Source of the DNA: Octopus vulgaris
Taxonomy: Eukaryota
Direction: 5' to 3'
DNA: 64,000 nucleotides
Assembly (NCBI GenBank): GCA_951406725.2
Contig: OX597842.1
Location: 33,542,001 to 33,606,000, forward strand
Both the position numbers and the translations under genes were made by a program. The notes under the pieces were generated by a model that saw only the letters and a program-made list of their open reading frames with translations, made no database searches and was not told the DNA's origin. Below are positions 5,898 through 60,509 of the stretch, in pieces (position 1 is the stretch's first letter; every line of letters begins with the position of its first letter).

Positions 5898-6139
5898 ATA
5901 TATATATATATATATTATATATATATGGATAGATGGATGTATACGTGGATGAGTTTGCGATTTGTTTGTTTAATGTATTCCATGGTGATAAAAAAGATGT
6001 TTTCTATGTATGTTTGTGTGTGTACAACATGTGTACACATGTATATATATGTGTGTGTGTATGTGCATATACATGTGTACTTTGAGAGAGATGTGGTTGC
6101 TATTTCTACCATATATATATATATATATTTAACATGTAC

Positions 6140-7083
6140 AGATCTCCCTCATTGGCTTATACATACATATATACATAGATAAGAGAGTAGGGTGTGATTT
6201 GAGGGAGATTTGGCTGTTATTTCTACCAGGTCTAACTACCATGTAGAGGTCTCCCTTATTGGCTCATACATACATATATACATAGATAAGAGAGTAGGGT
6301 GTGATTTGAGGGAGATTTGGCTGCTATTTCTATCAGGTCTAGCTACCATGTAGAGGTCTCCCCCATTGGCTCATACATACATATATACATAGATAAGAGA
6401 GTAGGGTGTGATTTGAGGGAGATTTGGCTGCTATTTCTACCAGGTCTAGCTACCATGTAGAGGTCTCCCTCATTGGCTCATACATACATATATATATACA
6501 TAGATAAGAGAGTAGGGTGTGATTTGAGGGAGATTTGGCTGTTATTTCTACCAGGTCTAACTACCATGTAGAGGTCTCCCTCATTGGCTCATACATACAT
6601 ATATACATAGATAAGAGAGTGGGGTGTGATTTAGGGAGATTTGGCTGCTATTTCTACCAGGTCTAGCTACCATGTAGATGTCTCCCTCATTGGCTCATAC
6701 ATACATATATACATAGATAAAAGAGTGGGGTGTGATTTGAGGGAGATTTGGCTGCTATTTCTATCAGGTCTAGCTACCATGTAGAGTTCTCCCTCATTGG
6801 CTCATACATACATATATACATAGATAAGAGAGTGGGGTGTGATTTGAGGGAGATTTGGCTGCTATTTCTACCAGGTCTAGCTACCATGTAGAGGTCTCCC
6901 TCATTGGCTCATACATACATATATACATAGATAAGAGAGTGGGGTGTGATTTGAGGGAGATTTGGCTGCTATTTCTACCAGGTCTAGCTACCATGTAGAG
7001 GTCTCCCTCATTGGCTCATACATACATATATACATAGATAAGAGAGTGGGGTGTGATTTAGGGAGATTTGGCTGCTATCTCTA
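6140..7083. repeat. ~107-bp tandem repeat, about 8-9 copies
   Basis: ATACATAGAT recurs at 6171, 6278, 6385 and onward; near-identical units. Confidence 0.95.
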
Positions 7084-7090
7084 TCCTTCA

Positions 7091-7291
7091 AAATGTGACC
7101 GAGTGTGTACCGTTGGCGATTTTCTTTTCCTCCATCTTCCCTTCTTTGGATCTTCCCTTTTCCTATGTTTCTGACGAAGAGCTCCCCTCGAAACGTTAAA
7201 TCCTCCTTTCCTGAGCGTCCAATAATACTATACTTGTACCACGTCCTCGCGTTGTTGTGTTTTCTCTTTGTGTTTTCATGTTTGGATTAAC
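7091..7291 (+). mobile_element. ~200-bp hammerhead-bearing element (Penelope pLTR-like)
   Basis: Homologous to 10768-10974(-); ends at (TA)n; contains a hammerhead motif. Confidence 0.7.
7167..7201 (+). ncRNA. Minimal type I hammerhead ribozyme motif
   Basis: guuu-CUGACGA-a-gag(cuccc)cuc-GAAAC-GUU-aaa: intact core, short stem II, palindromic stem III. Confidence 0.65.
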
Positions 7292-7564: not shown

Positions 7565-8560
7565 CTAGACTGTTACCCTTCGTATGACGCTAAACGTTGT
7601 CAGTGTTCTTTTGCTACCATGGGGCATAATCAGAAAATGCAGCATCTGATAATAATTCTGCTTGTTCCTCCGTTACCTAGCCCGTCCGTAACACTTCCAC
7701 GTGATAAGTTGAACGGTGGAAGGAGAGAGAAGGAGTGGATGGAAAGGATGGGGGAGAGATGGGGTTGGGTGCTGAGGGGATAAGAGAGATATGGAGGGGA
7801 AGGGTGAAGGGGAGGGGAGTAGCAGGGAGAGGGGTAGTGAGTGAAATGTGTAAATTGTTTTCTGAGCTAATATTTTTTTCCTCCGCTACTTAGCCCGTCT
7901 GTAACGCTTTCCTTTGATTAGATGAGGGGAAATTCGAAAGCGAACGAAAAATGAGAGAGAAAAAGAGGGAGAATGCAGTCTATTAAGTCTATAAAAATTG
8001 TGTATGAAGTATATAAAGTGTATATATAAAGCGTATATATATATGCATATATAAAGTGCATTAATTAATCATCGTTTTCCAATTTCTTTCACTTTTCAAT
8101 GATTAGCAGATGAGAGACTATCTTTTGATACAAACAACATAGGTTACGTTTTCAGGTTTTTTGGAGAAAATGTTCAGAAATAACCCAATAAATTTACCAT
8201 TAATTCTGTGAAATATTCACGGGTGCTGCTATAAATCAGACATTCCTTCGCTTTTCACTGATTAGCAGACGACCAACTATCTTTTGATACAGACACAACA
8301 CAGGTTACGTTTTCGGGTTTTTTGGAGAAAGTCTTCAGGAATAACTCAATAAATTTACTATTAATTCTGTGAAATATTCACGGGTCCTGCTTTAAATCAG
8401 ACAAACCTTCGCTTTTCACTGAATAGCAGACGACCGACTATCTTTTGATACAGACACAACACAGGTTACATTTTCGGGGGTTTTTTTGATAAAGATTTCA
8501 GAAATGACCCTATAAACTTACCATTAATTCTGTGAAATATTCACGAGTCTCGCAAGTAGA
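7565..8560 (-). mobile_element. Possible non-autonomous Helitron with internal minisatellite
   Basis: Minus strand A|TC start at 8560 and CTAG|T end at 7565 with a decayed subterminal hairpin. Boundaries inferred. Confidence 0.4.
8090..8548. repeat. ~160-bp tandem repeat, ~3 copies
   Basis: CTTTTCAnTGAnTAGCAGA at 8092, 8251, 8412. Confidence 0.9.
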
Positions 8561-12474: not shown

Positions 12475-13631
12475 GGCGGCGAGCTGGCAGAAACGTTAGC
12501 ACGCCGGGAGAAATGCTTAGCGGTATTTCGTCTGTCTTTATGTTCTGAGTTCAAATTCCGCCAATGTCGACTTTGCCTTTCATCCTTTCGGGGTCGATAA
12601 ATTAAGTACCAGTTGCGCACAGGGGTCGATGTAATCGACTTAATACCTATGTCTGTCCTTGTTTGTCCCCTCTGTGTTTAGTCCCTTGTGGGTAGTAAAG
12701 AAATAGGTATTTCATCTGCCGCTATGTTCTGAGTTCAAATTCTGCCGAGGTCGACTTTGCCTTTCATCCCCTCGGGGTCGATAAATTAAGTACCAGTTAC
12801 GCACTGGGGTCGATATAATCAACTTAATCCGACTGTCTATCCTTGTTTGTCTTCTCTGTGTTTAGCCCCTTGTGGGTAGTAAAGAAATAGGTATTTTGTC
12901 TGCCGTTACGTTCTCAGTTCAAATTCTGCCGAGGTCGACTTTGCCTTACATGCTTTCGGGGTCGATTAAATAAGTACCACTTACGCACTGGGGTCGATGT
13001 AATTGACTTAATCCCTATGTCTGTCCTTGTTTTTCCCCTCTGTGTTTAGCCCCTTGTGGGTAGTAAAGAAATAGGTATTTTGTCTGCCGTTACGTTCTCA
13101 GTTCAAATTCCGCCGAGGTCGTTTTTGCCTTTCATCCTTTCGGGGTCGATTAAATAAGTACCAGTTACGCACTGGGGTCGATGTAATTGACTTAATCCCT
13201 ATGTCTGTCCTTATTTTTCCCCTCTGTGTTTAGCCCCTTGTGGGTAGTAAAGAAATAGGTATTTTGTCTGCCGTTACGTTCTCAGTTCAAATTCCGCCGA
13301 GGTCGTTTTTGCCTTTCATCCTTTCGGGGTCGATTAAATAAGTACCAGTTACGCACTGGGGTCGATGTAATTGACTTAATCCCTATGTCTGTTCTTGTTT
13401 GTCCCCTCTGTGTTTAGCCCCTTGTGGGTAGTAAAGAAATAGGTATTTTTTCTGCCGTTACGTTCTCAGTTCAAATTCCGCCGAGGTCGACTTTGCCTTT
13501 CATCCCATCGGGGTCGATAAATTAAGTACCAGTTGAGCATTGGGGTCGATATAATCGACTTAATCCGTCTGTTTGTCCTTGCTTGTTCACTCTGTGTTTA
13601 GCCCCTTGTGGGTAGTAAAGAAATAGGTATT
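12475..13631 (+). mobile_element. SINE family C with its 3' 184 bp tandemly repeated 6 times
   Basis: Single head GGCGGCGAGCTGGCAGAAACGTTAG. GGTATT junctions at 12522, 12706, 12890, 13074, 13258, 13442, 13626. TTGAGTGAA on both flanks. Confidence 0.92.
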
Positions 13632-17075: not shown

Positions 17076-17143
<68 letters not shown>

Positions 17144-17468
17144 CGAAAGGCTTCTTTCAGATTCCGTCTAATGAATCCACTCACAAGGTTTTGGTTGGCT
17201 CAAGGCTATAGTAGAAGAAACTTACCCAAGGTGCCACGCAGTGGGACTGAACCCAGAACCATGTGGTTGGTAAAGAAGCTACTTACCACACAGCCACTCC
17301 TATGTGTATATACGACGGGCTTCTTTCAGTTTCCGTCTACCAAATCCACTCACAAGGTTTTGGTTGGCCCAAGGCTATAGTAGAAGACACTTACCCAAGG
17401 TGCCACGCAGTGGGACTGAACCCGGAACCATGTGATTGGTAAGCAAGCTACTTACCACACAACAACTC
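16823..17468 (-). mobile_element. SINE family A with duplicated head
   Basis: Full copy at 16823-17301 plus a second head at 17309-17468. Confidence 0.85.
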
Positions 17469-29074: not shown

Positions 29075-29250
29075 CAAACGATAATCTAAACAAGTTTTTT
29101 TCTCTCCGTAATTTTTACCTCTCTTCGCAGATTTCCTGAAGAAGAGCTTAGGCTCGAAATCTCAACGACTTCTATTTTTCCTGAGTGTTAAACTAATTCA
29201 CCTATATGGTGTTCCCTCGTCTGTCTGTCTTTTGCTCAATTTTGAACCAT
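29075..29250 (+). mobile_element. Hammerhead-bearing element (GAGC-stem family), decayed
   Basis: CUGAAGA-a-gagc(uuag)gcuc-GAAA at 29136-29159, then TTTCCTGAGTGT as in the other copies. Confidence 0.6.
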
Positions 29251-29327: not shown

Positions 29328-29372
29328 AAATGTTGAAAGAAAGAAAATGGAGAATAATGGATACATACATAC

Positions 29373-29403
<31 letters not shown>

Positions 29404-29454
29404 CGTACACATATATCATGAACTAACTGCTACTTTCTCAGATGCAGCACGAAG

Positions 29455-29507
29455 ATTTGTCAGTGAACAGGTCGCGGTCTCAAAGCGACGAAAATATTTT
29501 GACAAAT
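29455..29507 (+). ncRNA. Hammerhead ribozyme-like fold with G3:C8 swapped core
   Basis: auuuguca-GUGAACA-g-gucgc(9 nt)gcgac-GAAA-aua-UUU-ugacaaau: 8-bp stem I, 5-bp stem II, palindromic AAUAUU stem III. Second copy at 60257. Confidence 0.6.
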
Positions 29508-30794
29508 TAAATTTCTATGTTGAAGTGAATCTAACGGTTTTTGTGAGTTTTTAAATGGCTTATAAACACCTTCCACCCTTCAATTGTTTTCTTTCCAGCA
29601 CACGATCTCAGATCAAGTCACTCGCTATGCAAGTACATCTCCGTAATATATATATATATATATTTATATATATATGCATATATTTACACATAAACGCACA
29701 TATACATTTATAATGCATATATACATATATAAACGTGCATACATATATACACATATGCATATATGCATACAGGCATACATTGAAATACATATACATATAT
29801 ATATACATGGAGGCACATACATACAATTCTTACATACACATATATATATATATATACATGTATACATACAGATATACAATTCTGCATCTACACACATGTG
29901 TATACACATGCGCACGCGCATACGTGCAGGTATACACGCATAATAATATACATAGATGCATACATACACACATATACATGGTTACATGTATACGAGGATG
30001 TACATTCGCACATACATGCATATATACATACATACGAAAATGTATATAGGCACATACATACACGCATACAAATAGATGCATACACACACACATCCATACA
30101 TTAATTTGTACATACATGCGCACATACATGCCTGCATGCATACACACACATACATGCATGTATACACACATACATACATGCATGCATGCATACATACATG
30201 TATGCACACATACATACATACATGTATGCACACATACATACATACATACGGACATACATAAATACACATACATACATTCATACATAAATATACACACATA
30301 CGTACATATATAGGCACATATATGCATACATACATACATTCATACATACACACACATACATTCATACATATATACACAAACATACACAAAGTCATACATA
30401 CACGCATACAACACGATATACATAAACGTTCACGCTTACACACATTCACAGAGACATACACATACATACATGCATACACCCATATACAGCTATACTCACA
30501 AATATACATACATACATACATACATACATACATACACACATACATACACATACATAAGTTTGTTCGCCTCTAACCAATCCTGGTCGTATTTGACCAATCA
30601 ACCAATCAAATTAAAGCTAATGCATCCATCGAGTGAACACTTCCGCCAGAGGTCTCTGTCAGTCGCCGAAAATAAAAGGCCTAACCGGAACAGATGAATC
30701 ACGCGTTAATCACAGCCGAATTAAGGCTGGGAGTCGGTGATAGGAGCGTCCTCGCCTAATAAGGCTGCATACGTCATTGGAAGGGTGGTTGGGT

Positions 30795-32165: not shown

Positions 32166-32761
32166 CTAGCAGTATCGCCCGGCGTTGCTCGGGTTTGTTT
32201 CCACCCTTTAGAATTGGAATTTTTGAAAAGTAAAACATTTTGCATTATGTAGCTTGTTATTCTCTTTAAGTGAACATTTTTCTGGTTGAAATACACCGAA
32301 AAATGGTGATACAGCAGTCAAAAAGTCGTAAAAAAATAGGGATTTTCATAGAAAAAAGCACCCTTTTGATGTAAATAATTTTTGGTGTTAACATGGTCCA
32401 ATTTGAATTTTTTCTTTTACGGAATGAAGAGCAAGCCTTCTTCTATCATACGTTCAAATTTGGTCAACTTGCGCCGCAGGGTCTCGGAGGAAATAGTGTT
32501 AGTTGAAGGCTACCAAACCTGCCATACGTCGTAAAATATAGAGATTTTCATAGAAAAAAAGCACCTTTTTGATGTAAATAATTTTTGGTGTTAACATGAT
32601 CCGATTTGAATTTTATCTTCTACTGAAGGAAGAGCAAGCCTTCTTCTATCATACCCTCAATTTTGGTCAACTTGCGCCTCAGGGTCTCGGAGGAGATAGT
32701 GTTAGTTGAAGGCTACCAAACCTGCCATACACAGACAACTTCAGCTTCATATATAGATAGA
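32166..32761 (-). mobile_element. Non-autonomous Helitron with a ~200-bp internal duplication
   Basis: Same family as 31505; segment ~32325-32527 is repeated at ~32528-32730. Confidence 0.87.
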
Positions 32762-60190: not shown

Positions 60191-60247
<57 letters not shown>

Positions 60248-60256
60248 GCACGAAGC

Positions 60257-60307
60257 TTTGTCAGTGAACAGGTCACGGTCTTAAAGCGACGAAAATATTT
60301 TGACAAA
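60257..60307 (+). ncRNA. Second G3:C8 hammerhead-like fold
   Basis: uuuguca-GUGAACA-g-gucac..gcgac-GAAAauaUUU-ugacaaa, within 60245-60390, flanked by (TA)n. Confidence 0.55.
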
Positions 60308-60509
60308 TTAAACTTAAATGTTGAAGTGAATCTAACAGTTTTGTGTGATTCTTAAATGGCTTATAAACACCTTCCACGCTGCAATTGTTTATATATATAT
60401 ATATATATACTTATACTTACATATACATATATATATATACACTCATACACACACACATGTATATATAAACATAAACACTACTTGTAGACACGTGTACACA
60501 CGTATTCTT

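Follow-up and report, generated by a model that had tools for sequence, protein, structure and literature searches.

A probable natural variant of the minimal Penelope hammerhead, with a G3:C8 core pair, in a retroelement of Octopus vulgaris

The closest described relatives of the motif reported here are the minimal type I hammerheads of Penelope-like retroelements (PLEs; Cervera and de la Pena 2014, PMC4209133), and among these the Drosophila virilis type, which has a 2-nt palindromic insert in helix III. As portrayed in that article, the minimal hammerheads of metazoans have no activity on their own and little as dimers, and the entries of its Figure S3 list (56 by the legend) have C3:G8 at the tertiary 3:8 pair, with two cases of U3:A8, one of U3.G8 and none of G3:C8. 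The pairing of C3 with G8 belongs to the active hammerhead fold (PMC3884650). Natural hammerheads with U3:A8 (Perreault 2011, PMC3088659; Schistosoma Cercyon, PMC4209133) exhibit 3:8 covariation as the present family does, and CUGANGA descriptors miss them likewise; U3:A8 can be reached by two transitions by way of a U.G wobble, whereas G3:C8 would take two transversions by way of a mismatch. The swap to G3:C8 is itself familiar from mutagenesis: C3G/G8C partly restores cleavage in the hammerhead of the anole PLE Poseidon, which needs its protein (PMC11167929), and when all double mutants of a type III hammerhead were scanned, no other change rescued the core turn (PMC9901934). G3-C8 did worse with C17 than with G17, according to a remark in PMC3884650 for which data are not shown there. 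The account of the anole element (PMC11167929) also relates that hammerhead mutants had no effect on insertion in vitro, that no RNA-seq ends fell at the cut site, and that uncut RNA was the main substrate. In the literature searched, which did not extend to the largest catalogue (Lunse 2017), G3:C8 was found as an engineered mutant and not as a natural hammerhead, and no hammerhead was found in octopus.

The window analysed here is a 64,000-nt stretch of the Octopus vulgaris genome (contig OX597842.1, positions 33,542,001 to 33,606,000), and all elements of the hammerhead-like layout with a G3:C8 core that a preliminary description had placed at 29417..29645 were found there. On the forward strand, the 5' strand of stem I (29456..29462; 7 bp in the family and 8 bp here, with 29455) is followed by the core strand G3 U4 G5 A6 A7 C8 A9 (GUGAACA, 29463..29469, with G3 at 29463 and C8 at 29468), an extra G between A9 and G10.1 (29470), and the 5 bp of stem II (29471-29475 with 29485-29489), which are closed by G10.1-C11.1 and have a pair probability of 0.99. 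Loop II (29476-29484) differs between the subfamilies described below; stem II does not. Downstream lie GAAA (G12 A13 A14 A15.1, 29490-29493, read from the sequence), the palindromic stem III AAUAUU (29493-29498, with U16.1 at 29498), U17 (29499), and the 3' strand of stem I (29500..29506, recognized by folding and sequence). Hammerhead numbering predicts a cut at 29499/29500, in agreement with the site proposed earlier. The 8-bp stem I of the preliminary description applies to the window copy and not to the family: A29455 is private, T being found in ~93% of the contig depth, which gives a family stem I of 7 bp. Likewise its core GUGAACA is correct as read, but overlooks the extra G after A9, with which the core strand of the window hammerhead has 8 letters. 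A common variant in the 3' strand of stem I, A29502G, creates a U.G wobble and keeps the pairing.

Stems I and II around the core, the G10.1-C11.1 pair, the extra letter after A9, and the letters U4 G5 A6, A9, G12 A13 A14, A15.1-U16.1 and H17 (= U) are all present in the window motif, whereas the PLE-consensus letters C3 and G8 are replaced by G3 and C8, which could form a Watson-Crick 3:8 tertiary pair. A descriptor with the G3:C8 core has 2 matches in the 64-kb window versus 0.02 expected (100 shuffles), and the folding of the 66-nt hammerhead stretch has a z-score of -2.87, with 1 of 200 shuffles as good. The Rfam hammerhead models have no match to 29410-29650 at E up to 10, where there is one chance match, and the best 150 of 501 rows for the whole window are microsatellite-driven microRNA matches only; the expectation that standard searches would miss the family was thus borne out. 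Like the PLE hammerheads of PMC4209133, as characterized there, the motif lies in a pseudo-LTR of an element with dispersed truncated copies, and has an extra letter between positions 9 and 10.1, the G10.1-C11.1 pair, a permitted U17 and a palindromic, rudimentary stem III; unlike them, it has G:C at 3:8 and an extra letter G, where their consensus is A, C or U. In the clade of the window PLE this extra G is the rule, 8 of 9 readable lineages having it. A viroid hammerhead was reportedly impaired when a G was inserted after A9 (De la Pena and Flores 2001).

The 229 bp at 29417..29645 (+) form the 3' end, or pseudo-LTR, of a PLE, with the hammerhead, the 5' UTR, the first 30 codons of an ORF, and a tail. 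This unit is preceded by a (CATA)n/(TA)n tract (29361..29416, +), the end of a microsatellite-rich 3' UTR within which the window copy is 5'-truncated; most of 30 other copies have this tract 5' of the unit, and further upstream it connects with unique blocks of the 3' UTR and with the endonuclease ORF. The 30 codons of the ORF start (29555..29644, +; MAYKHLP...) begin 55 nt after the predicted cut, and the 'tail', a concept of Penelope elements set out in PMC11167929 and PMC8557442, extends between the preferred 3' ends of the family at unit positions ~173 and 229 (29590..29645, +) and is followed by a (TA)n target tract. The best 30 genomic copies, the window copy aside, are 92-95% identical to the 229-bp unit. 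Longer copies have the microsatellite-rich 3' UTR upstream, preceded by a GIY-YIG endonuclease that ends a 1025-codon open frame; this frame contains YVDD and matches the Pfam GIY-YIG family above its cut-off (E 1.8e-5), while Pfam returned no reverse transcriptase (RT) family for it and the RT motifs were read by eye. At one locus (L092), two hammerheads are arranged in direct tandem at a distance of 4,261 bp. The first of them is followed after 55 nt by the AUG, and the 30 codons of the unit continue there into the RT/endonuclease ORF. Copies are 5'-truncated, often have an inverted arm, and are sited in (TA)n. In 174 distinct copies, the 3' end is at unit 163-176 in 64, at 222-229 in 95, at the cut site in one, and elsewhere in 14; 159 of them extend far beyond the cut site.

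The tandem pseudo-LTRs, inverted truncated arms and tail identify the element as a PLE by the signatures given in PMC8557442 and PMC11167929, and its single ORF with RT and C-terminal GIY-YIG places it among PLEs with a C-terminal endonuclease (EN+). With the Nematis/Neptune-group PLEs, as represented in PMC8557442, it shares this ORF structure, the CxxxCxxC linker, pseudo-LTRs, inverted 5' arms, a tail, and microsatellite targets. The linker looks short and Nematis-like by eye against the supplement of PMC8557442, and the tree described below contains no named references; assignment to Neptune was dropped on linker length, the Neptune linker being long. The RT of the element, at L081:2471-5545 (-), has an RT3-RT4 spacer ~50 residues longer than that of canonical C-terminal-endonuclease PLEs (by eye, against Figs S1-S2 of PMC8557442), and the clade may be poorly described. 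The animal non-LTR retrozymes, as presented in bioRxiv 10.64898/2026.07.22.740005, likewise contain type I hammerheads from PLE pseudo-LTRs, but the window-family copies are truncated ends of an autonomous element. A non-LTR retrozyme was rejected as the source: short head-to-tail hammerhead units without an ORF were found neither among the 150 of 243 window rows listed nor in the fetched loci, and the units belong to an ORF-bearing element. Identical inverted unit junctions at several places on C1 (L031, L034, L035, L036, L040) indicate that there the insertion itself was carried inside a larger repeat. Adjoining another family copy, at L033:2171-6996 (-), is a non-LTR retrotransposon whose two ORFs, of 464 and 1149 codons, appear intact, with endonuclease and RT motifs recognized by eye.

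The window contains a second, shorter insertion of the same PLE family (unit 26-173) at 60243..60390 (+), with G3 at 60264. The preliminary description had taken the copy near 60257 to be independent, which it is not: the two are 91.9% identical and share one source. The G3:C8 descriptor matches there too, in keeping with the claim that the core is shared; however, stem II of this copy is broken by one change, giving an A.C mismatch, and the hammerhead is not its minimum-energy structure. Both window copies are truncated, single, and probably inert. Minimal hammerhead motifs with a canonical CUGANGA core occur in a different repeat family at 29136-29163 and 7171-7198 (+) of the window, and motifs related to these are found in L049 and in the insertion within L099. 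The window also has tandem arrays at 6133-7083 (107 bp period), 8084-8549 (161 bp), 12522-13631 (184 bp), 17132-17468 (169 bp) and 32325-32730 (203 bp).

A 16-mer of the G3/C8 core has 8,126 exact matches in the genome, compared with one for the control, and a 35-place pattern that allows any letter at positions 3 and 8 has 1,396, of which the first 100 listed include 95 with G3/C8 and none with C3/G8. Among 127 copies not picked by the core pattern, 103 have G3/C8 and 18 have G3/G8, the latter mostly in a cluster on C16 that the sampling favoured. A canonical CUGANGA core combined with this stem III shows no genomic enrichment (61 matches versus 44 for the control), and in contigs of the runs labelled organisms A to D no variant of position 3 or 8 reaches 3%. 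Contigs presumed to derive from RNA cover the unit, although contigs do not reveal expression or RNA ends. C3/C8 was read in 15 of the first 100 listed of 328 C3 matches. Two family copies have C3/G8 (L289, L290), which is explained by a single change on a G3/G8 background.

G3/G8 has 277 matches in all, and 26 of the 30 fetched belong to the PLE family of the window; at six of these 30 loci the other arm has C8, so that they resemble later single changes. Six pairs with G3/G8 in both arms occur among the first 100 G3/G8 places listed, and a cluster of G3/G8 places is on C16. That chromosome has, at ~2.9-7.4 Mb, a cluster of long subfamily-A copies, many of them G3/G8 and some in both arms (L005, L009, L010, L014, L026, L027, L041-L049, L094 and L298), which is a local amplification on one chromosome. 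The both-arm pairs and this cluster indicate that templates with a broken 3:8 pair did transpose. An old G3/G8 intermediate lineage was not found with a pattern excluding A7 and C8, which gave 41 matches, five with G8, and no subfamily. The decayed G3/G8 copy of L099 was rejected as an intermediate, another insertion separating the copy from the old ORF.

Between subfamilies A (80 copies) and B (47), none of the 42 sites in the core and stems differs, against 8 of 57 sites of loop II and the 5' UTR (p = 0.01 for the contrast). Private changes were counted at 19 of 560 core-strand sites and at 61 of 3065 sites of the 5' UTR; the sample is small and biased. Because inserted copies decay, the comparison across genomic copies that the preliminary description put forward is uninformative.

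The same genome contains a sister lineage, C/D, whose protein is 54% identical across the RT and endonuclease and whose pattern has 4,380 matches; this lineage has the same hammerhead layout with C3:G8. The older family C has CUGAAGA with C17, and the youngest, family D, has CUGAUGC. Pair 4 of stem II is A-U in C/D versus G-C in the window family, and G15.2 in C/D corresponds to A15.2. In the 8-letter core strand, 3 and 8 are the sole constrained letters that differ from family C, and they differ in a way that lets them pair. The family D hammerhead has A9C (older copies have A9), a mismatch in stem I, and a non-palindromic loop III, yet the family is young and has intact tandem ORFs. Its loci L281, L283 and L284 (C19 14.37-14.38 Mb and others) have intact ORFs of 1309 residues in tandem arrays, and C17 is changed to U in the newest copies.

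Compensation cannot be demonstrated from copies of one master, but relatives can show it. A metagenome scan yielded 28 related loci, in 16 of which the region behind the ORF was read and all of which were scanned by descriptor; viral contigs, and a metagenome scan with a single protein, gave no relative. The motif is intact in seven of the 28, with C3:G8 in L361, L364, L365 and L375 and U3:A8 in L366, L373 and L374; the other 21 comprise two that look decayed (L379 and L380) and 19 with none, many of them short contigs. The 3:8 pair is Watson-Crick in 9 of 9 readable lineages, as G3:C8, C3:G8 or U3:A8, which corresponds to 1/504 permutations, or 1/280 with L365 and L375 merged, relatedness being ignored; one descriptor used to pick relatives partly rewarded a paired 3:8, and a further pattern used did not. 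Two of these relatives have motifs of their own kind: L361:4973 (+), at ~50% protein identity, has A15.1-U16.1 swapped to U-A inside a 6-nt palindrome, and L379, ~180-230 bases behind the ORF match, has a stem I of 5 bp without mismatch and, within a palindrome, G15.1-C16.1, but also G5A and almost no stem II, in a single and possibly decayed copy.

A midpoint-rooted tree of 21 protein rows, four of them less than half filled and the L099 row excluded from evidence, joins the window family with C/D as sisters (100/100). Both belong to a group supported at 95/96, the other readable members of which, L361 and L364, have C3:G8. The two nearest metagenome relatives with a readable motif have C3:G8, and three farther ones have U3:A8. 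The C3:G8 of the sister families and nearest relatives makes it likely that C3:G8 is ancestral and that G3:C8 arose once, both letters having changed on the window-family branch. Relative to the sister families, the swap is compensatory, as the preliminary description had proposed, although its own argument was drawn from two copies with a common source. The selection for catalysis that it read from the change probably acts throughout the clade, though not strictly: G3/G8 copies have spread, the youngest sister family has A9C, and 159 of 174 3' ends are far past the cut.

The window hammerhead is likely a natural variant of the known minimal hammerheads of Penelope elements, and likely a slow one that depends on dimers or protein. 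We put at roughly 0.6 the probability that it is a minimal type I hammerhead with G3:C8 that cleaves slowly after U17, and probably does so only as a dimer or aided by a protein; that it has activity at all appears likely. The predicted ground state of the monomer has stem I extended by a G3.U17 wobble (probability 0.67), and only 1-2 bp of stem III are possible in the monomer. The AAUAUU palindrome permits a dimer, the formation of which is predicted only: its 6 bp would pair two copies and complete stem III, and the predicted energy of the double hammerhead is -29.0 kcal/mol, versus 2 x -8.8 for monomers closing A15.1-U16.1, with two ground states (-34.2) predicted to lie ~5 kcal/mol lower. 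U17 would limit the mispair of G3 with N17 to a wobble, whereas C17, as in family C, would fully pair G3 with the cleavage-site letter, mirroring the C3-G17 trap; U17 may have allowed the 3:8 swap for this reason.

Where copies are arrayed in tandem, cleavage within the upstream pseudo-LTR would release the element RNA from a read-through transcript and would leave a 5'-OH end 55 nt before the AUG. A role of cleavage in translation is possible by analogy with viral UTRs, in which self-cleavage can promote cap-independent translation (PMC13725137). The downstream hammerhead must mostly stay uncut, as the insertion ends suggest, reverse transcription starting 80-146 nt beyond it; a weak, conditional ribozyme would suit both upstream cutting and downstream persistence. 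Tentatively, and with more doubt than confidence, this may be extended to the whole PLE clade as a series of deliberately weakened ribozymes (an active G3:C8 with U17, reached by two transversions across an inactive mismatch; A9C; U15.1:A16.1; U3:A8), tuned to let the upstream copy cut and open translation and to spare the downstream one as an intact RT template.

Alternatively, the fold may have been kept for binding of the element protein or for setting up translation at the AUG 55 nt downstream, with negligible cleavage in vivo; this would account for the single copy of 174 that ends at the cut site and for the spread of lineages with damaged cores (G3/G8, and A9C in family D), and would have a parallel in the uncut RNA that PMC11167929 describes as the main substrate of the anole element. 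We consider it unlikely, since the 3:8 pair is part of the catalytic tertiary fold as treated in PMC3884650 and PMC9901934, and a plain two-stem binding site would not need the three-way covariation at 3:8 across the clade. Still less probable is a ribozyme that is dead in the window lineage, the changes at 3 and 8 being coincidental, fixed in a master copy and then amplified. In its favour, all copies come from few masters, so that the 8,126 matches amount to a single event; the core strand is not specially conserved in inserted copies; and the steps cannot be dated from any old G3/G8 or C3/C8 intermediate lineage, none having been found. Coincidence, however, would have had to alter just the two constrained letters that pair, and all 42 core and stem sites are the same in subfamilies A and B.

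At the other extreme, the hammerhead might cut efficiently as a monomer, stabilized by an unrecognized contact of loop II with stem I. This would fit the well-formed stems I (7 bp) and II (5 bp) and a loop II of 8-9 nt, but stem III is limited to 1-2 bp, loop II varies freely between the subfamilies, fast cutting would lose the 3' part that serves as the source for 159 of 174 insertions, and related minimal hammerheads are inactive as monomers in the account of PMC4209133; this is the most improbable reading of all. Slow cleavage after U17, by a dimer or with the help of a protein, remains the reading that we prefer.

Unlike the engineered C3G/G8C, the swap in the window PLE is natural, occurs in >8,000 copies, and is combined with U17 and an extra G. 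If it cleaves, this hammerhead would represent a third natural solution for the tertiary 3:8 pair, one otherwise found only from mutagenesis in the literature searched, and CUGANGA and Rfam searches would be overlooking a family of >8,000 copies in one genome. In the octopus genome, two sister retroelements that were active recently, and whose hammerhead cores are altered in different ways, coexist with an older canonical one. These three form a natural series for the question of what the hammerheads of Penelope elements do, a question that stands because the one element tested in vitro, as reported in PMC11167929, inserted without its ribozyme.
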